Source: an uncultured Pseudomonadota bacterium (GTDB taxonomy: Bacteria; Oederibacteriota; Muellerivitia; Muellerivitales; Muellerivitaceae). Taken from it: DNA of 64,000 bases. This document shows, one piece after another, positions 41,988 through 62,805 of the stretch (positions are counted from its first letter, which is position 1; every line of letters starts with the position of its first letter). Under the pieces are notes generated by a model, which worked only from the letters and a program-made list of their open reading frames with translations, had not been told where the DNA came from and did not search any database. Made by a program: the position numbers and the translations under genes. Where the stretch lies: positions 126,054 to 190,053 of the forward strand of contig CAWJKT010000003.1 in NCBI GenBank assembly GCA_963843375.1, given 5' to 3'.

Positions 41988-42590
41988 TTGAAAAGAAAAG
42001 TAAACCAGATAAAGTCGAAAATCAATGTCATGGGTGGCGGAAACGGTATTTTAGGCTGTGAGAGAAAGGCATTTGAACTTGATCTTAAGGCGATCTGTTC
42101 GATTGACCACGAATGCACTGGCTGTTCCACGATTGAGAATTGTTGCTGCGCGAAATATGACGTCTGCGTTTCGGAGGCGGAAGTCGAGAGAATCATTCCC
42201 TTTCTTCCCGAAGCGGCCAAGTTCTGCCCCCACCTCAAAACGGAAGCGGGATACGACAATGTATTTGAAGAGGCGGATGAAAGCAGTTATTCAATTGAAA
42301 CGCATGAAAATGATCTCTGTGTATTCGCGTATGAGTCCAATGGATTGTTCCGCTGTTCATTGCACACGGTCGAGTTGAGCCAAGGTCTTCCTCCGGGCAG
42401 CGTCAAACCCGCAGTCTGTATGCTTTACCCTCTGACCTTTTCCGAGAGGGGCGATGTTTTGACGCTTCATGACGATGCGCTTTTTTGTGCCTGTAGTTCA
42501 TTGAGAAAGAAGTCTTCGAACGAAATTTCTCCCGCCCTATTGGAGACCATTAGGCATTTTGGCGGGTCGGCTTCAACTCAAGCAGGCTGA
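41988..42590 (+). CDS. Cys-rich DUF3109/YkgJ-like putative metal-cluster protein
   Basis: C..C....CCC, CVF, CSLH and KP.VC.LYP. Confidence 0.65.
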   Translation: MKRKVNQIKSKINVMGGGNGILGCERKAFELDLKAICSIDHECTGCSTIENCCCAKYDVCVSEAEVERIIPFLPEAAKFCPHLKTEAGYDNVFEEADESSYSIETHENDLCVFAYESNGLFRCSLHTVELSQGLPPGSVKPAVCMLYPLTFSERGDVLTLHDDALFCACSSLRKKSSNEISPALLETIRHFGGSASTQAG

Positions 42591-42659: not shown

Positions 42660-43844
42660 TCAATAAAAAACATAGGCGTCCCCTAGCAGGCTGTAATTGG
42701 GTTCATTCGCCACAAAGGTTGGGTCCGTGCGCTGAAAGTCAATTTGTGTCTTTAAATTTCGCATAGGGTAACACCTGATACTCGCGACTTGACGGGTTTC
42801 GTCATAAGTACTTTCATTCAACGAATCATTAAACTTCTCGTCGACCAATCGAATGTAAATATCATCCCCCAAGTCCACTTCCGCGCTCACGTGATAAGCC
42901 ATGAGTTTGTCTACCTCAATTCCATTCGGGACGAAACCCGGGAGATATTGGGTGGGTTCGGAGTAACCTTGATCATATTCGGCCAATATTACAACGGGGC
43001 CAATCCGTCCCCAGCCAAAGGCGTTGTAGAGCAATGTTTGGGCGCTGGAAGCCACGGTTGTTTGCGTTCCTCCCGGTTCATCTAGATTGGCGGCGCAAAG
43101 GGAACCGCCCAAAGTAAAGGGGGAAAAACTGACGCCCCCTTTCGCGGAAAAAATCTTTTCATTCATGACCACGCTTCCCAATGCGGTGGTCACGGGTCCC
43201 GCGTCACCATTGGTGAGGGCTGCGTTGAGAAAAAATGGATCCGGATAAATTCCGACTTCCACCGCCCCGATTTGGGGGCTATCGAACGAAAATCCGAGTG
43301 GGGAACGAATAAGGCTGGCGTCGTCCGAAAGGGTTAAGCCATAGGGTAATAAAAAATTTCCAAATTTGATGTAACCGTCCCCCGGCAAATTGGAGATTAA
43401 TCCATAGGCTTCTTTGGTGGTGTTTTCATCCAACCGGTAGGTGAAAACCCCTGAAACTACTTCATTTGCCTTCACTTGGAATGAAAAATCCTGACGGCTC
43501 AGGGGTTGGGTAAAGGCGGTAAAGGAACTGTTGTTGGGATTTACGGAAGTATTGTAGTTTTGGGTCGTGTTGTAGCCCTCATGAATGTCGATTCCGATGG
43601 CGATCCAGGAAGGAGTCGCGTGTTGGACTTTCTGGGCCGCCTCGGAAATGCCCTGCCAATCGAAGGTCTGGAGGCCGTTTCCGTAGTTTTTTCCAAAATC
43701 GTTTCGCAGCCACCCGCCGGTCTGATTGACGTGGCAGGCGTTGCAGTTGACCCCTTTCCAGGCCGCCAGGTAGGGTTCGGACCAAGCACAGGTTGTTCCC
43801 AGGGATATAACCAACAAAGTGCCCAAAATCATAAGTTTTTTCAT
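42660..43844 (-). CDS. Outer-membrane beta-barrel with an N-terminal CxxCH heme-c motif (cytochrome-porin fusion, Cyc2-like architecture)
   Basis: Signal peptide then EPYLAAWKGVNCNACHVNQTGG..RNDFG; alternating beta strands; aromatic C-terminus (AYVFY). Confidence 0.7.
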   Translation of the reverse strand: MKKLMILGTLLVISLGTTCAWSEPYLAAWKGVNCNACHVNQTGGWLRNDFGKNYGNGLQTFDWQGISEAAQKVQHATPSWIAIGIDIHEGYNTTQNYNTSVNPNNSSFTAFTQPLSRQDFSFQVKANEVVSGVFTYRLDENTTKEAYGLISNLPGDGYIKFGNFLLPYGLTLSDDASLIRSPLGFSFDSPQIGAVEVGIYPDPFFLNAALTNGDAGPVTTALGSVVMNEKIFSAKGGVSFSPFTLGGSLCAANLDEPGGTQTTVASSAQTLLYNAFGWGRIGPVVILAEYDQGYSEPTQYLPGFVPNGIEVDKLMAYHVSAEVDLGDDIYIRLVDEKFNDSLNESTYDETRQVASIRCYPMRNLKTQIDFQRTDPTFVANEPNYSLLGDAYVFY

Positions 43845-43909
43845 GTTTTCTCCTGGAAAAATGTTCTTTGAACCCGTAAAGAATCGGCTCAGATACTCCT
43901 CATCAAGGA

Positions 43910-45781
43910 CTACTTAACTATGAGTAGTTTTCCCACCACTCTTTCGGACCCCTGGTTGATGACAATGTAATAAAGGCCATTCGCGAGGGTTTTGCCCCAA
44001 TGGTCTTTTAACTCTATCGTAGCCATTTGATTCCCCGCCGGAAGATCGCCTAAGTCCTCTTCCTGAATCTTTCGGAAAGCCGCAGTGAAGATTTGAAGTT
44101 TCACGTCCTCCGAAGCTACTAAGTTGAAAACCGTTTGAACCGGACCAGTTCCATTACCTGGATTTGGAAAAATTAGAATTTTCTCGGGTTCCAGAGTGGG
44201 TGTCAGTGTGAAAGTTCGGGTGAAAACAGGGGAAGGCGAGAGGCTTACGGTAGGGGTTGAAGTCGGGCTGCTTGTTGCAGTGTTCGTGTCCGTACCTGTC
44301 AGTGTATTGATGGGGGTAAAAGTATAAGTTGCGCTTGCCGTAACTGTGGCCGTGGACGAAAAGGTGGAAGAAAGAGTGCTTGTAGCAGTCGGTGTCAGGG
44401 TAGAGGTAGGGGTCGATGTGACCGTTACAGTGGGTGTTGAGGTTACCGTAAAACTGGAAGTTGGAGTGGTTGTGTCGGTTGCTGAGGACGAGGCCGTACT
44501 CGTCGCGGTCGTGGTTCCGGTTGAGGAAGGCGTGGGGGTACCGCTGAAAGTAAGGGTTAGGGTTGGGCTGGAAGTGGGTGTTATCGAGTCCGTAAGTGTA
44601 GGGGTAGAGGTCACGGTGGAAGTTGGCGTAACGGTAGGTGTGGATGAGACCGTACTCGTTGCGGTCGTTGTTCCCGTCGAGGATGGGGTGGGGGTTCCAG
44701 TGGAAATGAAGGTAAAAGTCGGGGTGGAAGTAGGAGTTGAGGTGGCAGTTAGGGTAGCGGTAGAAGTTACCGTAGACGTCGGGGATCTTGTTGGCGACGG
44801 AGTTGGCGTTCCAGTGGGTGTGCCAGACGCCGTCAGGGTGGGGGTACCAGTAGGCGTGGATGTGATCAAATTAGTGTCGGTAGAAGTCGCGGTTGTGGTG
44901 AGGGTTGATGAAATCGTTGCGGTAGGGGATTTAGTCGCGGTGCTGGTTGCCGAATTCGTCGGAGTAGACGTTACAGTTGAAGTGTAAGTCGGGGTCGGGC
45001 TGGATGTCGCCGAATTGGTTCGCGTGGCTGTAAAACTTGAGGTTGGGGATAAAGTTGAAGTACCTGTCGGGGTTAAGGAGGGCGTCGATGAAACGGTTGA
45101 GGTTGCTGTGAAAGTTGCGCTGGAAGTTGAGGTCCCAGTTAAAGTGTTGGTGGCGGTTAAAGTAAAGGTGGATGTCGGGGTCCGAGTAAGGGTTGAGGTA
45201 AAGGTTCCAGATGGCGTTGAAGAAAGGGTAAGTGTGGGACTGTTGGTTGCTGTCAAAGTTGGTGTGGGCGTTTGGGTGCTGGAAAAGGTGGAAGTCATCG
45301 TTAAAGTGGCCGTGTTCGCGGGTGTCGGGGTGGGTGTTCCTGTTGTCGTTTGGCTGGGCGTGAAAGTGATAACGGCGGCATTGACAATGAGGGTACAAGC
45401 CATTCCCCCGCAGCCCGTGGCGGTACAAGTCGTATTGTTGGGGTCGCATCCTGTGGCGTGATTACTGCAGTGGAAGAAATAAGTTCCTGGAGCATTAAAA
45501 ACTATGGTTAATCCGCTGGCAGGGTTTAAGCCATCCTCCATACAGGTCGTACCGCTATAGAGATAGAGTGGATGGATATTGGTATTGGTTGAATCCCAAG
45601 TCAAGGAATCGCCCGAGTTGATCGTAACGGCGGAAATAGCCGTCGTTGACCCTGTTGTAGTATATCGATATTGAGTTCCTGTAGGATTGATAACTCCAAT
45701 GGAAACAATAGCGGCCCGCAAAGAGGAAACTGGTGCCAAGGTGAAAAACAAGAATAAAATAAATATCCGGGTCAACAGCAT
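43910..45781 (-). CDS. Secreted cupredoxin-like domain + Thr/Ser/Pro stalk + T9SS-CTD-like domain
   Basis: TINSGDSLTW...HP...F.APGTYFFHCSNH...GMA.TL.V; about 400 aa T/S/P linker; IFPNP...G..LANGLYY...KLLIVK. Confidence 0.75.
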   Translation of the reverse strand: MLLTRIFILFLFFTLAPVSSLRAAIVSIGVINPTGTQYRYTTTGSTTAISAVTINSGDSLTWDSTNTNIHPLYLYSGTTCMEDGLNPASGLTIVFNAPGTYFFHCSNHATGCDPNNTTCTATGCGGMACTLIVNAAVITFTPSQTTTGTPTPTPANTATLTMTSTFSSTQTPTPTLTATNSPTLTLSSTPSGTFTSTLTRTPTSTFTLTATNTLTGTSTSSATFTATSTVSSTPSLTPTGTSTLSPTSSFTATRTNSATSSPTPTYTSTVTSTPTNSATSTATKSPTATISSTLTTTATSTDTNLITSTPTGTPTLTASGTPTGTPTPSPTRSPTSTVTSTATLTATSTPTSTPTFTFISTGTPTPSSTGTTTATSTVSSTPTVTPTSTVTSTPTLTDSITPTSSPTLTLTFSGTPTPSSTGTTTATSTASSSATDTTTPTSSFTVTSTPTVTVTSTPTSTLTPTATSTLSSTFSSTATVTASATYTFTPINTLTGTDTNTATSSPTSTPTVSLSPSPVFTRTFTLTPTLEPEKILIFPNPGNGTGPVQTVFNLVASEDVKLQIFTAAFRKIQEEDLGDLPAGNQMATIELKDHWGKTLANGLYYIVINQGSERVVGKLLIVK

Positions 45782-45840
45782 TTAATCGACTCCATATTGA
45801 TGCCAAATTCCTTGAAACACTAATAACGCCGTAACATAAC

Positions 45841-45866
45841 TAGTTCCTGGAAAGCCAAAATGTTAC
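45841..45866 (-). promoter_or_regulatory. Putative ECF sigma promoter of the cupredoxin/cytochrome-porin operon
   Basis: GTAAC-N16-AACTA on the minus strand, 60 nt upstream of ATG 45781. Confidence 0.65.
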
Positions 45867-46101
45867 CGGGGAGTTATTTAATAAATTGGAAATAGGGCTT
45901 ATATTTCCTGCAAAAACAGGGAGAATTTCACATTTGTGCCTAAACCCTGGGGTTTTCAACCTAACTGAATTCTGAAAAAGTCCTAAAATCGGACCTTTTC
46001 CCCTTTGCGAATGAGCCTTGGAGGTAAAAACCCAAAATCTGGGGGCCGTTCCATACCTTACCATTCAGTGCTGGGAAATATTATTAAAGCTCTGTGTTAA
46101 A

Positions 46102-46127
46102 GTAACTTTGTCGCTGGATGCCAACTA
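46102..46127 (+). promoter_or_regulatory. Putative autoregulatory ECF sigma promoter
   Basis: Same GTAAC-N16-AACTA spacing upstream of the AAGGAG RBS and TTG 46151. Confidence 0.65.
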
Positions 46128-46150
46128 TTGATAGTCAAGGAGTTTGTCTT

Positions 46151-46714
46151 TTGGATTTCAAAGACGACCAATGGCAAACTTGGACCCTGTTGATGAAGCA
46201 AACCCAGGGAGGGGATCAGAAAGCTTACGAACGCCTGCTGATGGAAATCAGCCCCTTGGTTTTTAATCTTGTCCGCAAAAGGGTCTTCAATAAGGAACAC
46301 GTCGAGGATGTGTATCAGGAAGTGCTTTTGACCTTCCACAAGGCCAAGCACACTTACCGGACCGACTTGCCATTCGGTCCTTGGTTTTTTGCCGTGATCC
46401 GCAACTCCATATGGAACGCCTTGCAAAAGAACCGCAAGATTGCGCAACGCGAAGTCCCAATGGATGATTTAACTGAGTTCGCCGCATTGGAAGTGGCTGA
46501 AGATAAGATCGACGATCGTCTTCGCCGGGCCCTGGAATCCCTCCCGGAGATATATCGGGGTGCGGTGGACCGATTGAAGTTTAAGGGAATGACGGTGGAA
46601 GTAGCAGCGAAGGAACTTGGGATTTCGAAGATCGCCCTGCGGGTGAGGGCCCACAGGGGATACAGCCTTTTAAGGAAGTTTTTGACGGCGCAAAAGGAAA
46701 AAGCCAATGAATGA
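46151..46714 (+). CDS. ECF RNA polymerase sigma factor (SigF/NrsF-coupled type)
   Basis: GDQKAY..L, EDVYQE..L..H....TY....PF.PW and region 4 LP..YR...VRAHRG; AAGGAG RBS supports TTG 46151. Confidence 0.9.
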   Translation: MDFKDDQWQTWTLLMKQTQGGDQKAYERLLMEISPLVFNLVRKRVFNKEHVEDVYQEVLLTFHKAKHTYRTDLPFGPWFFAVIRNSIWNALQKNRKIAQREVPMDDLTEFAALEVAEDKIDDRLRRALESLPEIYRGAVDRLKFKGMTVEVAAKELGISKIALRVRAHRGYSLLRKFLTAQKEKANE

Positions 46715-47402
46715 ACGGATTCAACCTAATCCCAATTTAAAGGGGCTGCCTGATTTCCAACGGCGTCTGGTGGAACGGCTTGCCTCGGAGGCGAAACCCC
46801 ACAAACCCATTCCAAGTGTCTTCCAACAATGGCTGGTTTGGTTTGGCTTTGCCCTGCTGGTGGTGGGAATCGCTTTGTCCTTAATCGGTCCCCAGTTCGA
46901 GATCGTGGAGAGACTTACCGATTTATCGTCGGGTGGTTTCTTGTTGCTGGCTTTTGCCTTGTCCGCGTTCATGGCCTGGATGGGCATCGCCTCTAGCATG
47001 CCCGACCATCGGCCCCGACCGGCGCCGCGGATTTTCGCCTGCGTTCTCGTCCTTTTTCTTTTCAGCATGCCTTTTCTATTTTTCGAAAAGGACAACCTTT
47101 CACAGGTATGGGCGCTCAATATGACCGACGGATGGTTTTGCGTGAGGACAGTGTTGTTAGTAGCCTTTCCTTCATGGGTAATGCTGGGCTGGATGGCTTC
47201 CCGTAACGCTTCTTTTCATCCCGGATGGACCGGAGCTTGGCTGGGAGCTTCGGCCTTTCTTTTGGGGACGGGAACTATTCAACTTCATTGCGCCCATTGG
47301 GAAACCTGCCACATGCTGGTGGACCACCTGCTTCCTCTCGTATTATTGATATTTCTGCCGATTTGGGTGGGGGGCTACTGGTTTTCGCGTTGGATGAAAT
47401 AA
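46707..47402 (+). CDS. NrsF/DUF1109-family membrane anti-sigma factor
   Basis: About 6 TM segments, GWFC and LHC......H motifs; overlaps the sigma stop codon. Confidence 0.82.
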   Translation: MNERIQPNPNLKGLPDFQRRLVERLASEAKPHKPIPSVFQQWLVWFGFALLVVGIALSLIGPQFEIVERLTDLSSGGFLLLAFALSAFMAWMGIASSMPDHRPRPAPRIFACVLVLFLFSMPFLFFEKDNLSQVWALNMTDGWFCVRTVLLVAFPSWVMLGWMASRNASFHPGWTGAWLGASAFLLGTGTIQLHCAHWETCHMLVDHLLPLVLLIFLPIWVGGYWFSRWMK

Positions 47403-47429: not shown

Positions 47430-48422
47430 TCACTTGATATAAACATCTTCCTTCTTTTGGATTTTGTCGTTGATCACCGTCGAATCAAGGTTCTTCGCGT
47501 CAACCGCCTCGGGCGTTAAAAGCACTGACCGAACTTTTTCTTGGCCGTTTTCTACCTCCACGAACTGGCAATCAAACTGGGTGGCCTTGCGGGCCAGTTT
47601 AGCCGCCAGGTAGGCTGCTTCTTCAGCCAGCTTTTGGGGAGGATGGTAAACTGTCATCCATTGCGAGCCGGAGGCGATTCTTTGGCAGGTATAAAGGTCC
47701 TGGCCCAGGCCAGCCACCGCAACTTTCTGGATAATCTTCGCTTTTTCCAAAGCTTGGATAACCCCTTTGGCCATTTCATTGTCTGGAGTCAGGACTGCGT
47801 CCACTTTATTTTTCTGCAGGTTTAAAATGGTTTCCATTTCCTCTGCAGCTTCAGAATGGGGAGTCCAGTGAGCAGCCGCGATTTGGATATTACCCTGGTC
47901 AATGAGAGGTTGAAGCACTTTCATTTGTCCTACCCGGAGTTCCTTGGAAACTGTATCCGCCGAGTCTCCTCCTAGGAGGACATAACGTCCCTTGGGAATC
48001 TTCCGTACAAGCGCCTGGGCTTGCAATTCGCCTGCCTTCACGTTGTTGAATCCAATGAGGTAATCCAAGTCGCAATCCGGGATAGGCTGTTCCAGGGAGA
48101 TCACTTTGATTCCGGCTTGGTGTGCGGCTTTTACCAAAGGCGCTGCTTTCGAGGGGTCATTCGGGAGAAGCACCAGGACAAGGATGCCCTGGTGAATCAA
48201 TTCCTGAACCTGGCTTTCCTGAGCCGCGGGGTCATCCTTTGCGTCTTTGACCAATAGTTCAGCCCGGTTGTCTCCCATGGCCTCCCGCAACTTTTGAATC
48301 AAAACCTCACGACCCGCGAGGTGGTCCACAAAAAAGCCGATTTTGACGGTGGGACCCCAGTGGCCCCAGCCGGTTAAAAACAAAAAGGCGACACACACGA
48401 TGAAGTAAATTCTAACACCCAT
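47430..48422 (-). CDS. XylF-like sugar ABC substrate-binding protein (orphan)
   Basis: Q..Q...LI..G, AH.AGIKVI, F.N..AG.LQA, ND.MA.G, G.Q.MTVY.P...LA. Confidence 0.82.
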   Translation of the reverse strand: MGVRIYFIVCVAFLFLTGWGHWGPTVKIGFFVDHLAGREVLIQKLREAMGDNRAELLVKDAKDDPAAQESQVQELIHQGILVLVLLPNDPSKAAPLVKAAHQAGIKVISLEQPIPDCDLDYLIGFNNVKAGELQAQALVRKIPKGRYVLLGGDSADTVSKELRVGQMKVLQPLIDQGNIQIAAAHWTPHSEAAEEMETILNLQKNKVDAVLTPDNEMAKGVIQALEKAKIIQKVAVAGLGQDLYTCQRIASGSQWMTVYHPPQKLAEEAAYLAAKLARKATQFDCQFVEVENGQEKVRSVLLTPEAVDAKNLDSTVINDKIQKKEDVYIK

Positions 48423-48588: not shown

Positions 48589-49407
48589 GTGAAAACCATC
48601 CCGAAACGGGCTTTGAAAGGAAAGCGATCCTCGATGAAACGGATGAAAATTGGTTTATTTAAACGCGTCTTCCTGTTGGGGTTCGTTTATTGGGGTGCCC
48701 AGGCCTTTTCGCCTTCGATATCATTCGCGCAAGAAGACGACCCGGGGATCATCCGAACCCTGGAGATTGATTCGGCGCAGGTTGAAAACGCCTATTACCT
48801 CGAGGCGACTTTTGACAATGACAGTTCATCCCATCATTTGTTTTATTTGTATGGCGAGGGGTTATTCGAACTAACTAAAAATTTAGGTTTGGAGGCTGAT
48901 TTTCCGACTCTGGATACCGAGGAACCTTTGGGACAGGGCCCGGCGATTTTGGGGCCTATCGGGCTCAATTTGCGATACGAGTTTTATCATTTCGGTGGAT
49001 GGAGCAGCGAGACGGCGGGTGCTTTTTCCATTGAGGGAGGCGGAGCCTACGGTTTTAGCAATAAAACTTTCCCATGGATTGGAAGCAGTTGGACTTTGGA
49101 AGCATTAGGGGGCTACCGGGTTGGGAAGTTCTTCCTTCAAGGGAACTATAGTTACCAAGGGGCTATTGATCCCCAGGTTCCTGATGAGTGTCAGGCTAAC
49201 ACGGGCTTAGGTTACCGACTCGGTTCCGATTGGTATATCCAGGGGGAAGCGGATTTCACGGCTATAACCGGAACCATTAGCAATTCTTCCTGGGTCTTTA
49301 TTCCTCAAATTGCCTTCCAGCCAGGAGAATGGCTATTTGAAGCAGGTGAATCCCTTAACCAAACGCCTGCGGGTTATACCGAATTGATGGTGGCCCGTAC
49401 TTTTTAA
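48589..49407 (+). CDS. Hypothetical secreted beta-barrel-like protein (start uncertain)
   Basis: Signal-like segment ending SFA-Q; amphipathic strands; terminal Phe. Confidence 0.55.
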   Translation: MKTIPKRALKGKRSSMKRMKIGLFKRVFLLGFVYWGAQAFSPSISFAQEDDPGIIRTLEIDSAQVENAYYLEATFDNDSSSHHLFYLYGEGLFELTKNLGLEADFPTLDTEEPLGQGPAILGPIGLNLRYEFYHFGGWSSETAGAFSIEGGGAYGFSNKTFPWIGSSWTLEALGGYRVGKFFLQGNYSYQGAIDPQVPDECQANTGLGYRLGSDWYIQGEADFTAITGTISNSSWVFIPQIAFQPGEWLFEAGESLNQTPAGYTELMVARTF

Positions 49408-52070: not shown

Positions 52071-54043
52071 ATGGCTAAGTCCGAAGCACCTCAGGCTCCA
52101 ACCGAGATCGCCCGGGTACTCGATTGGAAAGGGGCGGCCACCAACGCTATGGCGCTGATCGCGCCGGGCGCGTTTTTGTGGATCACCTATCAAGCACAAG
52201 TCGGTCTCACGGTCCCCAGCGGGGCCTCTTCCGCCAACGACATGTGGGCCGGGATTCTGGTGGCCTTGGGATTGGCCCTCTTGACGGCCCTCTCCTACGC
52301 CGAATTGGCCAAGATTTATCCGGAGGCGGGATTCGCCGGCTGCGTTTATTTCGCCGAGAAGGCCTTTATCGACGACCAGAAGCTCAAAAGGCCGGGACCC
52401 CAATCCATGGCCCGTATTGCCAAGCTGATCACCGGCTGGGCCGCTCATTTGTTCTACTGGGTTTATCCCGGCGTCATGGTGGCCTTCATGGGTACCTTGG
52501 CTTCTTACGTCTACGGGGCCATCACCGGGGGGACCATGACAATCATGTGGGAATTGGTGATTGCCTGGGTCTTCGCATTCGGCGTGGGATATATCGCCTA
52601 CAAGGGTGTGGCATGGTTCCACGGCGGCAAATATGTGGGGCAACATCATCCAATGGGTAACGCTGACGATCTTCAGCGTATTGGCTATCGCCTACCGGTG
52701 GATCAATCCGGATCACGCCACCAGTTGGGCCTTCAGCGGAGGGTTCGACATTGTGAAGTTTCACTCGGTAACAGGGGGTATTGGTGCAAGCGACCGTTGC
52801 CATCCTGATTCTCGTCGGATTCGAAAGCTGTACTTCCTTATCCGCCGAAACCAAGGAACCGGAGAAGAATATTCCGAAAGCCATCATTATCGCTTTGATC
52901 GTCCAGTGCGTATTCGCCTATATGTTCGAGTATTGGGCAGCCAACTACATGGTGAGTGAGAAGCTGACGGGGACCGTTCCAGTACCGGCTGTGGCCGCCG
53001 TTGCGGCCGTACCGGCAAGCGTGAGTGCCGCTGGAGTTACCACCGCCGCCGTCGCTGCGGTTGCCGCCGCGCCCGCGACCACCAAGATCGTCACGGGCTT
53101 TGATGCCATGGCCGCTTCCAGCGCTCCCATCGGGGATATGATGGTCCGCCTAGGAGACAGCTTTTTCGGGCATTTGGGTTTTATTATGATGATCATCATG
53201 GCGATCACGGTGGCTATCGCTGTCGTGGGAACCACCCTGGCCTGCTATAACACGGCTGTCCGCGTGACTGCCGGGATGGCCGAGGACCGGGAACTACCCG
53301 CCTTCCTGGGATTCATCCACTTGAAGAATAAATCGCCCCACACGGCGATCTGGCTTTTGGTTGCGGTTTCCTGCGTGATTGCCACCATCGGTTGCCAATC
53401 GGTGGACGGGTTGACCGGCATCACTCTGGCCTCCAACTTCGGGACCTTCGTTCTTTACGGCTCGGTCTGTATCTGGACCTTCATCGCCTACAAGAAACGC
53501 AAGGATTTCAACGCCTTCAAACACGCTTTAATCCCCTTGGGAGGGCTTATCCTGAACGTGCTGATGTGCTGGGGCGTCATCTACCTCTACACTATCGGAA
53601 ACGCGGACTCGCAGCTTGAGGCGAAGATCTTCTTCTATATCGCCGGCGGCTGGTTCCTGGTTTGGTTCCTCTACTTGTTCTTCACGTCCACGTTGAAATC
53701 GCATGGGATGAAGATGATCTCGGTGATCATCCGGCCGGATTCATTGGAAAACTTGGCGGATGCCTTGAATAAGGAAGAACTGGTCCAAGGGATGACGGTA
53801 TCCGAGGTGAAGGGCTTCGGCCGTACGAAAGGATCGAAGACCGACGACTCGCCCGCCAAAGTCAAGTTCCTGGACAAGGTCCGGGTGGATGTGGTGGTGA
53901 ACACATGGGATGTGCCCCATGTTATCGACGTCATGAAGGAGATCTTATACACCGGTAACAAGGGCGATGGAAAGATCTTCGTCCTTGAAACGACCGAGGC
54001 CGTCCGTGTCCGCACCGGTGAGACGGGTGTCGTAGCGGTTTAG
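52071..54043 (+). CDS. APC-family amino acid/amine permease fused to a C-terminal P-II (GlnB/GlnK-like) domain; frameshifts near 52610 and 52780
   Basis: SYAELA..YPEAG, GFESC..L..ETK.P.KNIPKA, R....MA.D..LP; in-frame MKMISVIIRP..GMTVSEVKGFGR..TG..GDGKIFV..VRVRTGE (53708-54043). Confidence 0.85.
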
Positions 54044-54070
54044 TTTTACTTCGCCAAAAGCCAAACCCTG

Positions 54071-54105
54071 AGCCCCTACGATCGATGATTGTGGGGGCTT
54101 TTTTT
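54071..54105 (+). terminator. Intrinsic terminator after the permease-PII gene
   Basis: AGCCCCTAC...GTGGGGGCT followed by T-run. Confidence 0.7.
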
Positions 54106-54130
54106 ATGCCCTCATTCAGGAGTTATTCCT

Positions 54131-54847
54131 TTGAAAGCACCTAAAGCTTTGATTCTTTGCATTGATGGCAATTCCTCCATCCACATTTTTCTAAGGACTA
54201 CCCTCGTTGCTAACGGTTACGCCTACCTGAAGGCTTCAACGGGAGAGGAGGGATTGATCACAGCCGTAATTCGTAATCCCGATTTGATTTTGTTGGAACT
54301 GGGGCTTCCCGACCTGGACGGCTTGGAAGTCATCTCCCGATTGCGGAAATCATGGAAAAAACCCATCATCGTCATTTCTGAACGCGACAGTGAAAAGGAT
54401 AAGGTTGCGGCCCTTGAAATGGGAGTTGATGACTACCTCACCAAACCTTTTAGCGCGCCTGAGCTCATGGCCCGCATCAGTGCGGCTTTAAGACGGACTC
54501 AAAGCGCTTCCGGCCCGGAGAAAGGTCAAATTTATAAATATGGGGATTTGAAGGTGGATCTGGCCCATCGCCGGGTTTGGCGCGGGAAAGAAGAGGTATA
54601 TTTGACCCGCCGGGAATACATCCTGTTCGCCACCCTTGTCCGGTATGCGGGTGAAGTGGTCACCCATCGAAATCTCCTGGCGGCGATTTGGGGAGAGGCT
54701 TTTGTCAATCAATCCCATAACCAGTCCGTGCGCATCAACTTGAGGGTGCTCATCAACCAATTGCGACAGAAGCTGGAAACAGACTCAGGCAAACCCCTCC
54801 ATTTCCAAAGCCATTACGGTGAGGGTTACCGGTTGCAGATCGATTAA
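54131..54847 (+). CDS. Orphan OmpR/KdpE-like response regulator with an atypical receiver
   Basis: PDLILLELGLPDLDG, DDYLTKPF, winged helix LT..EY..LRV.I.QLRQKLE..GYR; AGGAG RBS before TTG 54131. Confidence 0.88.
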   Translation: MKAPKALILCIDGNSSIHIFLRTTLVANGYAYLKASTGEEGLITAVIRNPDLILLELGLPDLDGLEVISRLRKSWKKPIIVISERDSEKDKVAALEMGVDDYLTKPFSAPELMARISAALRRTQSASGPEKGQIYKYGDLKVDLAHRRVWRGKEEVYLTRREYILFATLVRYAGEVVTHRNLLAAIWGEAFVNQSHNQSVRINLRVLINQLRQKLETDSGKPLHFQSHYGEGYRLQID

Positions 54848-55249
54848 GAACCTCCGATGCAAATTTAAAATAAATAAAATTTAATCACCAAGAACCAGGG
54901 ATACTAACAACTGCGGGAATAAAGATTTGATTTTCAGCTTTAATTAAACGGTTTTTTTAGTTTGTTTATTCAGTTCTTTAATCCGTTGCCATGCTGTTTA
55001 GTCCTCACTCGCCAAAACGCCAAAAAACGTTAAATGGCCCAGATATTTTTCTTCAAATAGTTCGATTTCTTAATAATTTCTTAACAAATAATGACTTTAT
55101 TGCCTAAATATCTTAAGTTTATTAACAAAAAATAATGTTACAAAATTGTATAATAACCATATAAACGTAACTAAAGACGTTATTGATTTATTTATTAGTT
55201 ATAAAAACGTTAGTTTTAGCCATTTTTAAGTTAGTTTTTTGTTAATAAA

Positions 55250-55265
55250 TGGCACAAGGTTTGCT
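55250..55265 (+). promoter_or_regulatory. sigma54 -24/-12 promoter of the porin gene
   Basis: TGGCAC-aaggt-TTGCT. Confidence 0.8.
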
Positions 55266-55361
55266 TTACATCCCCTATTGATTGTTCGGTTGCTGTTTTT
55301 GCGGAACCCCTTGTCCCTGACAAATGGTTCCGCCAACAGAAGTTAAAACTTTAAGGAGGAT

Positions 55362-56507
55362 GTGATGAGAAAGAAATTCAAGCTGTTCAGTTTCTTGGCC
55401 TCGTTCGCTTTAGCCGGTAGTGTCGCTCCGGTGATGGCGCAAACGGCGGCTGCTACACCGGCGGCAACGGCCGCGGCGGCAACGCCAACCGCAGTTCCGA
55501 CTCCGGTGGTGACGGTTGATGGGTTGGTGGATACGTACTTTTCTTACGATTTCAGCGATCCGAGTAAAGTACCAACAGCAGGAAATAATTCTTATTGGTA
55601 TAACAGCGCTTCTGATTCCTATACTTTAGGATTGGCCGAGGCGAAGATTACCGCCACACAAGGCGCGGCCAGCGGCCATTTGGTTTTGGCTTATGGCGAG
55701 GAAAATGGAGGGTTAGGAATTGGAACCGGTACTTCAGGATTTGATGTGCTTCAAGCCTATGTGTCCTACAATCCTGGACAATGGACCTTCAATTTCGGGA
55801 AATTCGTCACCTGGATGGGATATGAGGTGATTGAAAGTGTCGGCAATGCGAACTACAGCCATTCGCTGTTATTTAATGCCCTGCCATACTGGCATACGGG
55901 TGTCAGCGTAAATTACGCTCCCACCACGGTCTTCAACGCCACTTTTTATGCCACGGATGGAATCAATACCACTGCAGTTGGAGGAACCGGAGAGACACTT
56001 GGATTGGAAGCTGTCGTTGCGCCTAATGCCATGTGGTCCTTCACCGGAAACGGCCTTTTCGCCCCGATAGGTGGTAGCCAGGAAGCAGTTGTTGGCGAGG
56101 GGATCATTGTATACAAACCTTCGGCTTGGAGCTTTGCCTTGGACGGCGAGTTCGGAACTTCTGGCGTTGCTGCCGGAACGGCTCCCAGCTATTTTGGTGT
56201 CGCTTTGTACGGCAAATACCAAATTCAAAGCGATTGGGATGTAGCACTTCGTTTGGAATACATTAACGATAGTGCTGATGATTTGCTTGATCTTTATGGG
56301 AATAATCCTCTTTCTACTCCGGGTAAGGCTTTCACTGGCGACGAAGTTACTTTGACCATTGAGCATGACTTTATGCCTAACCTGATCGCCCGCTTGGAAG
56401 GCCGTGTGGATATGGCCAGCTACAACGGCGCTTCGGCTGATGTATTTGATGCTGACACTAGTTCCAGCCAGGCTACTGCTACTGGCAGCATGGCCTACAC
56501 GTTTTAA
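55362..56507 (+). CDS. Outer-membrane beta-barrel porin (BBP2/OmpL-like family)
   Basis: Signal peptide; G.VD.Y..Y, QAYV, GKFVTW.GYEVI, NYS.S.LF...P..HTG and R.E.R.D; terminal YTF. Confidence 0.82.
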   Translation: MMRKKFKLFSFLASFALAGSVAPVMAQTAAATPAATAAAATPTAVPTPVVTVDGLVDTYFSYDFSDPSKVPTAGNNSYWYNSASDSYTLGLAEAKITATQGAASGHLVLAYGEENGGLGIGTGTSGFDVLQAYVSYNPGQWTFNFGKFVTWMGYEVIESVGNANYSHSLLFNALPYWHTGVSVNYAPTTVFNATFYATDGINTTAVGGTGETLGLEAVVAPNAMWSFTGNGLFAPIGGSQEAVVGEGIIVYKPSAWSFALDGEFGTSGVAAGTAPSYFGVALYGKYQIQSDWDVALRLEYINDSADDLLDLYGNNPLSTPGKAFTGDEVTLTIEHDFMPNLIARLEGRVDMASYNGASADVFDADTSSSQATATGSMAYTF

Positions 56508-56618
56508 GGTTGGTTTGGGGGATCACCTTGCTCGGCTATGTGGCCAGGCAAGGAGTACGAGAGGGAAAATGATTTAGTAAAGAAGCCATAACTTCTCTCT
56601 CTCCTCCGGTTTGCAGCA

Positions 56619-56649
56619 GGGGGGCTGACCCGGCCAAGGTTAGCCCCCC
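56619..56649 (+). terminator. GC-rich hairpin after the porin gene; no U-tract, abuts the sequence junction
   Basis: GGGGGGCTGACC-cggccaa-GGTTAGCCCCCC. Confidence 0.5.
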
Positions 56650-56877
56650 AGGAACGGCTCGCGCCAGGTCCTTCATGAACGAGACGACGCCCTTGAGGAT
56701 GATCGGAATATTGGCAATCCCCCGGCTGCCGGCGGTCAGGGCGACGGTCTGCTTCGGCTTGATCGTCTTGTTGAGGCCCAATTTCATAAGGGCCTCGCCG
56801 CCACGGCCAACGGAATGTTGTTGAGCGCGTGGGCGGGGGAATTGTTGCTTCAAACGAACCATGTGAGGATAAGCCAT
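56648..56877 (-). pseudogene. 5' fragment of a LarA-N/DUF362-like protein, cut off at the junction
   Basis: M.R.KQ.FPRP..IKP..TVALTAGSRGIANI; similarity stops where P-F-L-V-P-A-M-G-S-H-G-G would be expected. Confidence 0.7.
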
Positions 56878-56894
56878 GAGAGTGTCCTTTTTTT

Positions 56895-57253
56895 TCAGCT
56901 AAGGCTAGTTGTTGTGGCACTTTCGGAAGGCGGTGGCGAGGACTGGCTATTCGGGGCGGGACCCCGCCCTCGACCATCTGAGGCGTGACGAATCGCGGCC
57001 CAATCGATGGCAGCTACCCAGCAGTGTTCTTCGTTGGAGTACGACACAATGCCGTCGACCAGCAATTCATCGAGGTGTGCCTTGTCATCAAGGTCCATCC
57101 GAGTACAAGGACAGCGACAAGCCCTCGCGCCAACTCGATGTGCTGCTGCCCAAATCTTCCATGGTGCCGACGCAATTCAAGCGGCAGACGGCCCTGAGAA
57201 TCAGCGTTGTGGAAGTCCGCGTATACTTTTTGCTTTACCATGCTGCCGCTCAC
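56895..57253 (-). CDS. Small conserved-looking hypothetical protein (frameshifted)
   Basis: VYADFHNADSQGRL in one frame continuing to ELLVDGIVSYSNEEHCWVAAIDW in another. Confidence 0.5.
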
Positions 57254-57357
57254 TTTCCATCATGTCTTTCTGGCAGGATTGGGAATGGTCGGCGTGAAAA
57301 GACGGCTTGCGTGATCGGGGCTCAGACTAATACGACTTTAAACAAGCGAAGTCCACG

Positions 57358-57557
57358 GTTGCCCCGTTAGGGGCATTTGATGGTAGCCCAGCGATTTATC
57401 GCTGGGGTTGGGGCCGCAGCGAGATCCCAGTCGCGTAGCGACGGCCGATTCCGAGTGCCACGGCTCAAGCGTCGCTACGCGACGCCCTTGGACCGGCATG
57501 CCTTTGTCCCCAGCGATAAATCGCTGGGCTACCATCAAATGCCCCTAACGGGGCAAC
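57358..57557. repeat. Nested inverted repeat (REP/REPIN- or MITE-like)
   Basis: Perfect 50-bp arms 57358-57407 and 57508-57557; inner 14-bp arms 57430-57443 and 57470-57483. Confidence 0.9.
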
Positions 57558-57579
57558 AAACCTCGCTTGTTTTAGGACG

Positions 57580-57900
57580 AGTAGAGTAGCGTGATGAGGA
57601 CTCGCGTCCAGAGGTTCTGACCACATCCCCCACCCGCCGCTCTGAATTACCCCAACAGTGGTCACACCAATGTAACTGTGGGGAATGGATGCGGCCAAAT
57701 CTTCCACAGATACTCCCTCCGTACATTCCACCGATGCTCCCGTTATGCCGCTGGGATGGGTTTGCGTTCCGGCGCCGCAAGTCCGCTGGGAGGTTTGCGC
57801 CCACCTCGGACAACCACGGCTTCATCCGGAATCCGGTCGACCGCTCCGCTCCTTTAGACATCTTATCCGATGTTGTTTTGTCGAAGTTCGACGTGACGTC
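57580..57900 (-). CDS. Hypothetical protein (frameshifted; boundaries approximate)
   Basis: VEDLAASIPHSYIGVTTVG, GDVVRTSGR and SPHHATL pieces lie in different frames. Confidence 0.35.
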
Positions 57901-58439
57901 AGGGAGCGGCGAGCCGCGTCGCCGGATCCGACGCCCCCTCACCGGAAAACGCGTCGGCGAAGAGCTTGGTGAAGCTGTTGACGAGCGTCAGATTTCGGGT
58001 CCCCCTCTTCGATGAGGACTTTCTCGCACACTGTCAAACCGAGGGCGATGGGGTGCGGGACCATTAATCTGGATGCCCTGAAAGGGAAACTGCACGCCAG
58101 CAACACCGCCGCCCGCCGCTGATAAACCGCGATTAGTCACACTGCTAACGACATTGCGTGTATTTCGCCTATTTTGCAAACAACCGTTTGAACGGTTCCC
58201 GCAAAAAAGCACCCGTCTTGTATGCCCAGTTGCGGTGAACGGAGCGTCGATTTGGCGGCAACTGACGGCTCCGGATAACGGCGGTCCAACTTTCAGAGGA
58301 CTTCACCAAAAGCCATAAATAATCCCCTGGCGTAATCGTCTCTGACCCGCTAGCTTCTCCAGAGTTTCCAGCAGCTGGCCTTCAGGGAAAGGACCCATGT
58401 CCACCTCAACCTTCGACTCTCCCATTCCTTTCATGAACA

Positions 58440-58660
58440 TCAGGGTCCGCTGCGATATAACCGACAGGGGCACAGACCTTCCCTTCGTCGCAGATAGTCA
58501 ACACGTTCTTGGTTGAGGGCCTTATCAAACCACAGCAAATGACCGCAATTAGGGCACGGTGCATCATGTGTGTCGATCGATGGTTCCAGGCGGAAGTCAT
58601 GGCCGCAAAAAACACAACGATTCGGCGTTCCCTCGGGTGTGCGCAAGAGATTGTCATTGA
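58440..58660 (-). CDS. Small zinc-ribbon protein of a type typical of Planctomycetes
   Basis: RTPEG.PNRCVFCG...EPS....DAPCPNCGHLLWF; N-terminus frameshifted. Confidence 0.6.
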
Positions 58661-58789
58661 TGCCCTCCGCGGCAGAACACAGATTTGCGAACCCCCCGGT
58701 GCAGTGTCAAAACCCAAAGCTCGAGATGGGACGTTCAGGCGGTTGCGGGTTCTCCGGGGTTTCGGAGTACCTCAACCCCGGCCACGACT

Positions 58790-60194
58790 CCCAAATCACG
58801 CAAACAACTGCCGGATCGGCTCCGCTTCGACCAAGCCGCACCGGCCGTCCGCCGGGGCCGGGCATCATGGTCGTGATCGAGGTCGATGCCCATGCCGTGG
58901 TAGATCGACGCCAGCACCTGCGGCGGCTCGATGGGGTTGTCGATCGGGGCGCGAGCCGATGCGGTCGGTCGAGCCGATGACCTGGCCGCCGCGGATGTTG
59001 CCGCCGCACAGGAAATTGGTCCACGCCGCCGGGATAATGATCGCGGCCGCCGCGGCCGTTCAGCCGCGGCGTGCGGCCGAACTCGCTCAGCACGGCGACC
59101 ACCGTTTCCTGCAGCAAGCCGCGTTGCTCCAGATCGTCGATCAGGGCGGTGAAGGCCAGGTCGAACTGCGGGCACAGATGGCGTTCGTAATCGAGGTAGG
59201 TGTTGTTCAGGCCGCCGCCGTCGGCGTGCATGTCCCAGCAGGTCTGGCCGAAGACCGTGTCGAAGTGGTTGACCGTGACGTAGCGGACGCCGCCTTCGAT
59301 CAGCCGGCGGGCCATCAGGCAGCTTTGGCCGAACGTGTTGCGGCCATAGCGGTCGCGGAGCCGGTCGTCTTCCGTGATCGAGGTCGAACGCTTCCTTGGC
59401 CCGCTGCGAGGTGAGCAGGCGGAAGGCGCGGTCGTAGGAGCTGTCGTGCATCTGCGTGCGTGCTGCGTTTCGGTGCGGCGCTGCAGTTCGTCGAGCTGGT
59501 CCAGCAGATCGCCGGCGGGCGTCGAGGCGGGCGGCCGACGATGCCGGCGGGGACTTCCAGATCGGCGACGCGGAAGTCGGCGGCGGGCCGGGTCGGCGTT
59601 CAGGAAGAACGGCTCGTGGGCGCTGCCGAGGTAGCCCGGCCGTCTGGCCGTGCAGAGGGCCGGCGCCGGTGTTGCCGATCGGGCCGGGCAGGATGACGTT
59701 GGCGGGCAGTTCGCTCTTCTGGCCGAACACGCGCGAGATCACGCTGCCGGCAGTGCGGCTTGATGCTGTCGGCGTTGAAATCGTGGCCGGTCATCATCCA
59801 GCGCTGGCCGTTTTCGTGCGTCGCGCCGGTGCGATGGTGCAGGCTGCGGATCAGCGAAATCTTGTCCATCCGCCGGGCCATCAGCGGGAAGTGCTCGCAG
59901 ATCTGGATGCCGTTGACGTTGGTCTGCGATCGGCTTGAACTTGCCGCGCACTTCGGCCGGGGCGTCGGGCTTCATGTCCCAGGTATCGAGATGGCCGGGC
60001 GAGCCGACCAGGAAAATGGTGATGCAGTTGCTTGATGCGGGCCCGCGATTCGATCGACGGCGCCGGTCGCTTCCAGACGCATCAGATTCGGCAGGGCCAG
60101 CCCGGCCATGCCCGCGGCGCCGCCGTGCAGGAAGCTGCGCCGCGAGGCCGTGACCAGCGCAAAGCGGAAGTTTCTCGTTGCCGATATTCAGCAT
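58790..60194 (-). CDS. DUF1501 domain protein (multiple frameshifts; 3' end approximate)
   Basis: [41 protein letters not shown] and [17 protein letters not shown]. Confidence 0.88.
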
Positions 60195-60265
60195 GAGCGC
60201 AACTCCTTAATTTTCGGCGGGTGTGTGCGGTAGGTGAGCATCGTGTGCAGTGTTCAGTTCTCAAA

Positions 60266-60604
60266 TCAGCTTGAATCGCTGCAAACTGACACTGAAAACT
60301 CAGATCGTAGGTCACGTGGTTGGAAACATCGATGAAACGGCTGTTGACGAATTCGCCCGGCGGGATTCTTGGGGTAATCGACGTAATTCCACATTTGCAG
60401 CACGACTTCGTAGTTGCCCGGCGTGGCATCGGGATGTTCGTAGGCATGGTCGGCGCGGGCGTTCGCCGTGGCGACCACCTGGCCGTTGCGGCGGATTTCC
60501 CACTGCAGCGCAGGCCCCAGTCGTTGGTCACCTCGCTGCGCGTCACCCGGCGGCCTTGCAAGGTTCAGCACGGCGCTCGGCGTTCCCTCGAATCGTTGTT
60601 CCAT
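60266..60604 (-). CDS. Hypothetical protein (frameshifted)
   Basis: WEIRRNGQVV..YEHPDATPGNYEVVLQMW; no family recognised. Confidence 0.4.
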   Translation of the reverse strand: MEQRFEGTPSAVLNLARPPGDAQRGDQRLGPALQWEIRRNGQVVATANARADHAYEHPDATPGNYEVVLQMWNYVDYPKNPAGRIRQQPFHRCFQPRDLRSEFSVSVCSDSS

Positions 60605-60836
60605 GGCAATCCCCCCTTAACAAGCGGCATTATTCACAAACCATTCCACCAATGTAACATTTGTGAGAATTTACTCAAGAAGATTCTACACAATTTTTCG
60701 AATTCGAAAATCCCGAATCGTCTCCCTACAATATCCCGGCTGCTTGAGTGCCGCCTATTCGGAGCGCATTCCCGAAGCGCCGGCGGGCGGAACTCCAGCA
60801 CTGATGAAAACCTGTCACTCTTTATGAGGCATTTCC

Positions 60837-61954
60837 ATGGCGGAACATCGCAAATTTTCCAGCGTGGCCCGGCTGCTCGGCCTGAATCTGACTCCGGGCA
60901 AGTTGCGCGGCTTGCAAAAGATCAGCAATCCCAACGGCACCTTGACCATGGTGGCCCTGGATCAGAACAGCTCCATGATTTCCATGATCAAGGACAGCCT
61001 GAAGAAGAAGGGCGAAGAACCGCGAGCCGACCTTCGATGAACTCGTCGAGGCCAAGGTCGCACCTGGCCCGCGCGCTGAGCCCGGCCGCCAGCGCCGTGC
61101 TGGTCGATGCCTATTACGGGGCCTGGAACACGCGTGGCCAGCTTCGCCTTGCCGCGCGATGTCGGCCTGCTGGTGCGCGTCGAGAAATCGGGCGGGGCCA
61201 AGAACTCCGCGGTGCTCCGATGGGCGAGATCGAGCCGGGCTGGAGCGTCGGCAAGATCAAGCGCATGGGGGCCGACGCCGTCAAGCTGCTGGCCCAGTTC
61301 GAGCCGACCGAGCCGGCCAGTGCCGAGCATCAGTTCGCCTTGATCCGCAAGGTCTACGAGGAGTGCCAGAAGCACGACATCCTGATGCTGCTCGAAACCG
61401 TGGCGTTTCCCATTCGACGGCGAGAAGAAGGACAGCAAGAGCCTGCTGGACCGCAAGGCCGAGACCGTGCTCGAAAGCGCCCGCTGGCTCAGCCGTTGGT
61501 GCGACGTCTACAAGGCTGAGTTTCCCGGCAACTTCGGCCATGAAAGCGACAGCCAGCTGCAGGAAAACCTGGTCAAGCTGAATGCAGCTATCGGAACGGC
61601 CCTGGGTGCTGCTCAGCGCCGGCGTCGATTTTCCGCAGTACAAGAAGCAGGTGGAAATGGCGATGAAGGCCGGGGCCAACGGCATTCTCGGCGGCCGGGC
61701 GTTCTGGAAGGAGTATTTCTTGCAGGAAGGCTTCGCAGGCCCGCGATCAATTTGCCCGCGGCGAATGCGTCAGCCGCGATCCGCCAGGTGGACGAAATCG
61801 TCAAGGCCAAGGGAACGCCGTGGTTCGCCCGCTACGGCTTGACGATGGAAGACCTGCACGGCTTCCGGGCCACGGAAAACTGGCACTTCCGCTACGGCGG
61901 CGACACGCAATCCAGCGGCGGCGGCACACGGCCGTCGAAGGGGATGTGTATTGA
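60837..61954 (+). CDS. Tagatose-1,6-bisphosphate aldolase (LacD-type class I aldolase); multiple frameshifts
   Basis: TPGKLRGLQ..MVALDQ, LSPAASAVLVD, WSVGKIKRMGADAVKLL, DVYKAEFP, PWVLLSAGV and G.LGGRA.W. Confidence 0.85.
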
Positions 61955-62106
61955 CATACCAAGCCGGTCCGAAGCGGTCGGGTATATGCGGCGTTTACGC
62001 GGTTGACGGCCAGCAAACCTGTCTTGATCTAAACCCCGGCAACACACTATCCTATAGCGATCGCGTATTGCCCACCGAATGGATCGGTAATCGAAAGGTG
62101 CGACGC

Positions 62107-62664: not shown

Positions 62665-62805
62665 AAACGGAATGTCTCTCGTTGCCCGGACCTCTCGTCA
62701 TCGCCTATATCAACATCACGCACGATCGGGAAAACTAACTTTCAGCAGACGCGCGATTTTGGCGACGCTGCCAGGTACGTCCGTCATACTCACGAGGAAA
62801 TACAC

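Follow-up and report, generated by a model that had tools for sequence, protein, structure and literature searches.

The window analysed here, a 64,000-nt stretch of contig CAWJKT010000003.1 from an uncultured bacterium, raises the question of what a predicted heme-porin and a stalked copper protein do side by side, divergent from a sigma factor and its anti-sigma. A sequence-only reading had proposed an inducible extracellular redox or metal-handling module, and all four open reading frames (ORFs) of this candidate are present in the window at the positions it gave. The window is part of a 4.05-Mb assembly, 80% complete (genome G000), and the closest named records are labelled candidate division FCPU426. 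We consider it probable that porin and carrier form one electron-transfer module controlled by an extracytoplasmic function (ECF) sigma factor, whatever the direction of flow; that the two minus-strand genes are an inward, stress-induced one-electron conduit is put forward only tentatively. The module is an undescribed variant of the Cyc2-plus-carrier theme, and a literature search that did not cover subscription papers found no description of the porin family, the Cys-loop cupredoxins or the module.

A predicted cytochrome-porin and its putative copper partner

The porin gene (42660..43844, minus strand) encodes a protein of 394 aa with a predicted signal peptide at residues 1-22, judged by eye and from the alignment, and a mature N-terminus EPYLA. 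Its CxxCH heme c motif (residues 34-38, with Cys34, Cys37 and His38; 43731..43745, minus strand) is invariant in all 66 aligned rows. A homologue search collected 99 sequences including the window's own protein, of which 96 carry CxxCH and the remaining three are N-terminally cut. The porin had no Pfam or NCBIfam match and no solved relative by sequence, and in the atlas the family is present as unnamed clusters only. The structure model contains 16 long strands forming a barrel at residues 81-394, with low confidence in the heme region; the best fold matches were general porins and OprP/OprO, templates also reported for Cyc2 (PMC8406198). The CxxCH-bearing outer-membrane barrel of the sequence-only reading is borne out by these results, and the protein is predicted to bind heme. 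Cytochrome c maturation genes, a check that reading had called for, are present in the genome as system II (ResB/CcsA-type), together with heme-copper oxidases and cytochrome b/Rieske-type genes.

The only conserved His or Met of the porin is His38 of the CxxCH motif. At its mature N-terminus the porin has the pattern xPxΦA, similar to the one in cytochrome f. By analogy with that protein, where Tyr1 is a heme ligand (PMC8557733), the sixth heme ligand may be the mature N-terminus or Tyr25.

For comparison with Cyc2, metagenomes were scanned with the published motif; 80 loci were taken from at least 120, and 61 full-length proteins were kept. In HHalign the porin family aligned to this set at 97.8% over 351 columns, heme region included, and the xP-9-CxxCH spacing is identical in both. 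A home-made HMM of the 61 proteins gave no match in G000 and weak N-terminal scores on the porin family. Keffer et al. define Cyc2 by the motifs AXPXFAR[QK][TY] and PXL, with a length of at least 365 aa and a 16-strand porin as further criteria (PMC8406198). The window's porin has the single N-terminal CxxCH, the length (394 aa) and, in the model, the 16 strands. Aligned over its full length yet without either motif, the family would be a sister family of Cyc2; it looks Cyc2-like in design but is not Cyc2 by the published motifs.

Upstream of the porin, a gene at 43910..45781 (minus strand) encodes the stalked cupredoxin of 623 aa, composed of a signal peptide, a cupredoxin head, a Thr-rich stalk and a C-terminal sorting-type domain. 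The two-gene unit described earlier is confirmed with its 65-nt gap (43845..43909, minus strand), which contains the porin ribosome site. No terminator-like site was found within this spacer, which fits co-transcription of the two genes.

The type-1 ligand set of the head (aa 24-135; 45377..45712, minus strand) consists of His70, Cys105, His108 and Met127, and all 13 aligned cupredoxin domains keep it. In a profile search the best solved relatives of the head were plastocyanin and amicyanin (E 1e-8). The cupredoxin assignment is upheld, and copper binding by the head is predicted from its ligands. Rusticyanin was not among the best 60 of 144 solved-structure matches. The structure model of the head has a pLDDT of 68 with weak cupredoxin-fold matches, and an atlas score of 0.88 is taken as a lead only.

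The loop between His and Met has 18 residues with three extra Cys in the window's head, which also contains Cys80 and Cys129. Across the family this loop spans 13-22 residues, and the three extra Cys were found in 32 of the 33 parsed domains (of 37). Among the best 150 matches in a representative library, 17 long loops of the Cys type were counted versus 358 short ones, and nearly all of the 17 lie in proteins resembling the FCPU426 forms. The three loop Cys and one conserved upstream Cys would fit two disulfides.

The stalk comprises 396 aa (44189..45376, minus strand; Thr 41%, Ser 19%, Pro 11%) and leads to a FlgD-Ig or type IX secretion system (T9SS) type A-like domain (43910..44185, minus strand), identified by sub-threshold Pfam and NCBIfam matches. 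This tail is common to 40 ORFs of the genome. Nine of the 17 tail proteins scanned for domains are glycoside hydrolases (three GH5, one GH8, one GH9, one GH28 and three GH30); three others have carbohydrate-related domains, one a protease pro-domain and one a Vps10 match, and three gave no match. A gene for a SprA-like protein of about 2,000 aa (in G000 at C15:110180-116168) was found in 29 of the 32 order genomes, and G000 has PorV-like genes over the cut-off. PorU/C25 and PF14349 were not found in G000 in searches whose controls were silent; PorK/L/M/N were not searched. Because the cupredoxin shares its stalk and tail with glycoside hydrolases that the organism exports, and a SprA-like gene is present, its export to the surface is likely, in line with the extracellular placement suggested earlier. 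The FCPU426 order would have a minimal T9SS-like export route, comprising SprA-like proteins and, in G000, the 40 predicted tail-bearing secreted proteins.

Linkage and predicted control among FCPU426 relatives

The porin was searched for in 61 genomes, namely G000, 30 of its family, one of its order and 29 from elsewhere in the phylum. It was found in 27: G000, 25 of the 30 family members, the one order member and none of the 29 others. Over the 32 order genomes, cupredoxins were counted in 27, the lipoprotein-type monoheme cytochrome in 12 and NrsF in 28. All 27 porin-bearing genomes have a cupredoxin and/or a FoxE-like cytochrome, 19 have such a carrier within 10 kb of the porin, and 11 have an NrsF orthologue within 10 kb. 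Three of the five porin-less genomes (G007, G017 and G022; 85, 93 and 97% complete) lack cupredoxin, cytochrome and NrsF together. The linkage counts were made by hand from coordinates, short contigs limit several of them, and related genomes are not independent. The exact four-gene layout occurs in 2 of the 27 genomes, G000 and its relative G001, so linkage of the gene families is supported and a conserved four-gene unit is not.

A carrier lies directly upstream of the porin in 11 of the 27 genomes, a cupredoxin in seven and a cytochrome in four, on separate branches. This alternation of a copper protein and a c-type cytochrome in the same slot points to electron carriage, and an exchange of this kind is known from plastocyanin and cytochrome c6 (PMC8557733, PMC5526843). 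The stalk-plus-tail form of the cupredoxin is complete in at least eight genomes, counted over 20 chosen regions and the porin loci. A single-domain homologue search returned two proteins only.

The module is most complete at locus L054 (G011:C36:1467-6759), where a single run comprises two cupredoxins of lipoprotein type, another with stalk and tail, a FoxE-like cytochrome and the porin. Behind this run stands a gene of the polysaccharide lyase 14 family. A gene of this family comes directly after the porin in 9 of 28 loci (L032, L034, L036, L038, L039, L051-L054); no homologue was found in G000.

The best solved match of the partner cytochrome was FoxE (E 6e-15), an Fe(II)-oxidising cytochrome of Rhodobacter (PMC10654088), which provides a second link to iron oxidation beside Cyc2. 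Outside the phylum, 57 loci (L087-L143) were drawn from the best 80 of 214 porin matches. In 39 of 54 scorable loci the gene immediately before the porin encodes the cytochrome, as detected by a model in which 24 of the 38 rows come from those loci. A cupredoxin of FCPU426 type was found in 1 of 57 loci (a weak match) and the tail in none. The linkage of porin with cupredoxin holds within FCPU426, and across phyla the partner is the FoxE-like monoheme cytochrome. ECF sigma genes occur in 21 of the 57 loci, where control of the porin-cytochrome pair is apparently a separate recruitment. Neighbours of the pair in these phyla include putative anti-sigmas other than NrsF, S8 peptidases, and Big_7, Lipoprotein_15 or CHRD proteins.

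The divergent unit was correctly identified as an ECF sigma factor with NrsF; the start of the sigma gene required correction. It had been called at 46118-46714 on the plus strand, and ATG 46118 falls between two promoter elements. Since the ATG lies inside the promoter and orthologues begin at a conserved TTG behind an AAGGAG ribosome site, the true start is placed at TTG 46151. The ECF16/SigF-type sigma factor thus has 187 aa (46151..46714, plus strand), and the NrsF-family anti-sigma 231 aa (46707..47402, plus strand; PF06532, E 1.5e-13). NrsF contains Cys145 and Cys195, 50 residues apart as are C131 and C181 in Caulobacter (spacing compared in unaligned sequences).

Both units are preceded by the same promoter-like motif, as had been noted. 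The pattern GTAAC-N16-AACTA has two sites in the window versus 0.05 expected, and two sites appeared in none of 100 shuffles; the pattern was derived from these two sites, so that this test is partly circular and the relatives are the real support. The site of the cupredoxin-porin unit (45841..45866, minus strand; GTAAC-N18-CTA, ECF16-type) occupies the same position in G001; it ends in CTAG, one base off the CTAT/CTAC/CTAA conserved in relatives, and so misses the wider pattern. The other (46102..46127, plus strand) is a putative ECF16-type autoregulatory promoter of the sigma-NrsF unit. GTAAC was found upstream of the sigma gene in 26 of the 28 loci that hold one (29 examined). The wider pattern, GTAAC-N17-19-[CG]TA[TCA], stands before 17 of 78 carrier and porin genes (cupredoxins 9 of 37, cytochromes 3 of 15, porins 5 of 26) versus 1 of 261 control ORFs; one of the five porin sites lies within the upstream gene and may be due to chance. 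Genome-wide in G000 the motif was not enriched (144 sites versus about 131 expected), and single matches were not trusted. Sigma-70 promoter and terminator scans gave no excess over shuffles.

Compared with the published ECF16 consensus GTAACC-N16-CGAA (PMC3511200, PMC3420878), the -35 element and the spacing agree; at -10, 13 of 16 orthologue loci have CTA(T) instead. The locus sigma factor probably has a small regulon of its own. The GTAAC motif was also found before msrA, at 13 of 28 and 17 of 23 loci; the six loci from the four genomes without NrsF all lack it. All 30 msrA sites have GTA at -10. CTA prevails at the carriers and porins (11 of 17 sites) and at the orthologous sigma genes (13 of 16), so that msrA may belong to a paralogous sigma factor.

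A paralogous ECF16/NrsF pair with a GTA-type site is encoded at G000:C8:131718-132982 and likely drives two msrA genes and a frameshifted DipZ-like gene in G000. A second cupredoxin of the same family, lipoprotein-type with a Thr-rich stalk, lies at G000:C4:378972-379637; GTAAC-N17-CTAT stands upstream of it and of its G001 counterpart. It is broken by frameshifts, which are probably assembly errors, as other genes of the assembly are also split. A multicopper oxidase of G000 was considered as a motif-controlled gene and dropped, its site being conserved in 1 of 13. Candidate sites also stand at the DipZ-like gene and at a MauL-type cupredoxin gene.

ECF16 systems respond to chromium and cadmium (PMC3511200), to copper, with SigF controlling the core copper-stress regulon in Caulobacter (10.1101/2024.03.18.585515), to reactive chlorine (PMC4436054) and to H2O2 (PMC3420878). 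The copper regulon would suit a different arrangement, in which the parts are co-regulated but independent: the Cys-rich cupredoxin would serve as a surface copper sink or buffer under copper stress, and the porin would act alone or with other partners. The dispersal of the cupredoxins (each genome has 1 to 8 matches, many of them distant from the porin), the rarity of the four-gene layout and the three extra loop Cys, which could bind Cu(I), agree with such a sink. The c-type cytochrome that alternates in the upstream slot is not a copper sink, however, the head retains the full type-1 ligand set, the loop Cys with their upstream partner would fit disulfides, and the motif before the multicopper oxidase is poorly conserved. 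We regard independent parts as unlikely.

Possible directions of electron transfer

If porin and carrier are one module, the conduit that we tentatively favour runs inward. The predicted blue-copper head, likely held outside the cell on a flexible stalk after export by the SprA/PorV-like route used by cellulases, would take electrons from a reduced metal, most likely Fe(II) and possibly Cu(I), or from reduced humics. The heme of the porin, predicted to be Cyc2-like, would then relay these electrons towards the oxidases of the cell and O2. The sigma factor would be freed once the NrsF cysteines are oxidised or metal-bound, and the main benefit would be that Fenton-active metal stays oxidised outside the envelope, any energy gain coming second. 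It is the Cyc2 and FoxE homologies that point to Fe(II), and a partial precedent comes from Sideroxydans, which induces cupredoxins predicted to be extracellular when on magnetite (PMC11429942). A broader version, which we find rather doubtful, has the exported copper shuttle on its stalk of about 400 residues serve the Cyc2-sister porin from outside, carrying electrons one at a time to or from iron, humics or substrate at a distance, with the porin family as a widespread, stress-controlled conduit of heterotrophs that uses interchangeable copper and FoxE-like heme carriers.

Several observations weigh against the inward conduit. The motif AXPXFAR[Q/K][T/Y] upstream of CxxCH is present in 0 of 99 porin homologues, and PXL downstream of it in 0 of 99 versus 57 of 61 canonical Cyc2. 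In a FastTree phylogeny 76 porin-family sequences fall into a single clade (0.985) that excludes the 31 canonical Cyc2 included (of 61); this tree has no outgroup or labelled references, and the motif-selected set may miss the divergent cluster 3. With the motifs absent and a clade of its own, iron oxidase activity is not transferable to the porin. Among the distant porin carriers are Colwellia, Cellvibrio, Nevskia and Steroidobacteraceae, which are not known to be iron oxidisers, and the domains of the tail proteins suggest that the FCPU426 hosts degrade polysaccharides. Searches for the FoxE-like cytochrome found none in G000 (80% complete) or G001 (99%).

Linkage and export add to these points. 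Eight of the 27 porins have no carrier within 10 kb, and the stalk-plus-tail cupredoxin adjoins the porin in two genomes, shares its gene run in a third and stands elsewhere in at least five more. The tail matches are sub-threshold (Por_Secre_tail, E 0.011 and 0.0004; FlgD_ig, E 0.00045), and the SprA-like gene scores under its curated cut-off. No periplasmic acceptor is encoded at the locus.

Energetics and heme position are also unfavourable. Met-ligated blue copper sites typically have potentials that are probably above those of neutrophile Cyc2. For the latter, -130 and +208 mV have been reported (PMC13692758, PMC13741234), so that transfer from copper to heme would probably be uphill. In addition, Cyc2 hemes have been modelled on the periplasmic side of the barrel (PMC13692758, 10.1101/2021.03.22.436458), which would leave the heme far from an outside partner.

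A periplasm-facing heme is what the classical Cyc2-rusticyanin layout has. In that case the carriers would be periplasmic lipoproteins with a non-exporting tail, accepting electrons from the heme after Fe(II) oxidation in the pore, a direction in which heme-to-copper transfer would be downhill. The known pathway and the modelled heme agree with this (PMC10654088, PMC13692758, 10.1101/2021.03.22.436458), and most porin-adjacent carriers of the relatives are short, lipoprotein-type and tail-less. The adjacent carrier of G000 and G001, by contrast, bears the stalk and tail of GH5, GH8 and GH9 cellulases, which are necessarily outside, and a stalk of 396 residues would far exceed what a periplasmic shuttle needs. 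For this locus we judge the classical layout quite improbable.

The same potentials would favour outward flow, in which periplasmic electrons reach the surface copper head by way of the porin heme, since heme to type-1 copper is likely downhill given the Cyc2 values and the usual copper range. The head would then quench oxidants outside the cell (hypochlorite, radicals, Cu(II), Cr(VI), Fe(III)), or it would repair oxidised surface enzymes. The chromium/cadmium, reactive chlorine, H2O2 and copper responses of ECF16/NrsF regulons would suit this role, as would the motif before msrA and its absence from loci without NrsF, and in four genomes an msrA gene with a secreted product stands no more than about 3 kb from a cupredoxin gene. 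Against it, the -10 element at msrA is uniformly GTA while carriers, porins and sigma genes mostly have CTA, no AA10 lytic polysaccharide monooxygenase (LPMO) acceptor was found in any of 32 genomes, the periplasmic donor is not encoded at the locus, and both homology links indicate oxidation. Outward flow is considered unlikely. LPMO priming was rejected for the lineage on the 0 of 32 result for AA10; other LPMO families were not searched.

The porin family is of wider interest because Cyc2-type proteins are the main marker of microbial iron oxidation and it falls outside their published motifs. If the family oxidises Fe(II), iron-redox capacity has been overlooked in an apparent polysaccharide-degrader lineage and in many heterotrophs; if it does not, it reveals what a cytochrome-porin does in organisms other than iron oxidisers. 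Mounting a cupredoxin on a stalk of cellulase type would, if true, be a new route to extracellular redox partners without multiheme cytochromes, a tethered copper shuttle replacing multiheme wires. Porin and cytochrome occur together in cultured carriers (Nevskia soli, Thalassomonas and Aliiglaciecola records), which makes the family testable now.

Flanking genes complete the picture of the locus. A XylF-like sugar-binding protein (47430..48422, minus strand) accompanies the sigma-NrsF pair in 10 of 28 loci. A conserved unannotated protein (48589..49407, plus strand) with faint outer-membrane barrel hints occurs in 9 of 28 relative loci and is directly upstream of the porin in three. Convergent with the porin, a Cys-rich ORF of 200 aa (41988-42590, plus strand) has no Pfam or NCBIfam match and is absent from the recurring neighbour families of relatives. 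At 54000-64000 of the window the G+C content climbs to 0.56-0.63 over most of the tail (genome 0.51) and the ORFs are degraded; at G000:C4:50000-120000 it is 0.59-0.66, with a cluster of 8-, 18- and 25-heme ORFs. Both regions are possibly foreign or mis-joined DNA, and the multiheme genes were excluded from the evidence.

Comparison with known systems

The porin shares with Cyc2 (A. ferrooxidans Cyc2, Mariprofundus Cyc2PV-1, Ghiorsea Cyc2TAG1_1, Leptospirillum Cyt572) a signal peptide, a full-length profile alignment, a length above 365 aa, one CxxCH nine residues past the proline at mature position 2 and a predicted 16-strand barrel. Unlike Cyc2, it has its own motif, EPY[LF]A..CxxCH.N..GG..R, forms a separate clade, occurs in apparent polysaccharide degraders and is adjoined by ECF sigma factors rather than oxidase genes. 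FoxE of Rhodobacter ferrooxidans SW2 (PDB 5MAB) is the best solved match of the family's monoheme cytochrome partner in relatives and other phyla; FoxE itself is a periplasmic diheme protein that is not known to have a porin partner, whereas the matching cytochrome is monoheme and absent from the window.

Plastocyanin and amicyanin have the fold and the His-Cys-His-Met ligand set of the head. The head differs in its His-to-Met loop, which is short in typical members and in this family has 13-22 residues and three extra Cys, and in its fusion to Thr-rich stalks, family members being lipoprotein-type or tail-bearing. With T9SS type A cargo the stalked cupredoxin has in common the order of signal peptide, functional domain, linker and Ig-like tail, and SprA-like and PorV-like genes in the genome. 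It is unlike such cargo in its sub-cut-off matches, in that PorU was not found, in a host outside Bacteroidota and in being a predicted redox carrier.

The regulatory pair resembles SigF/NrsF (ECF16) of Caulobacter, Azospira and Bradyrhizobium in an NrsF anti-sigma with two Cys 50 apart, in autoregulation, in the GTAAC -35 element and in msrA among the motif-bearing genes of the FCPU426 lineage. Its -10 element is mostly CTA(T), not CG(T/A)A, and it is predicted to act on genes for a heme porin and electron carriers, which are not known as targets of the described SigF/NrsF pairs. The rus operon of Acidithiobacillus (Cyc2-rusticyanin-Cyc1-aa3 oxidase) likewise combines a heme porin gene with genes for a blue-copper protein, a small c-type cytochrome or both. 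The FCPU426 version is distinguished by a copper protein that is plastocyanin/amicyanin-like, not rusticyanin, and is either lipid-tethered or equipped with a stalk and an export-type tail, and by a locus that is free of oxidase genes and under predicted ECF16/NrsF control.

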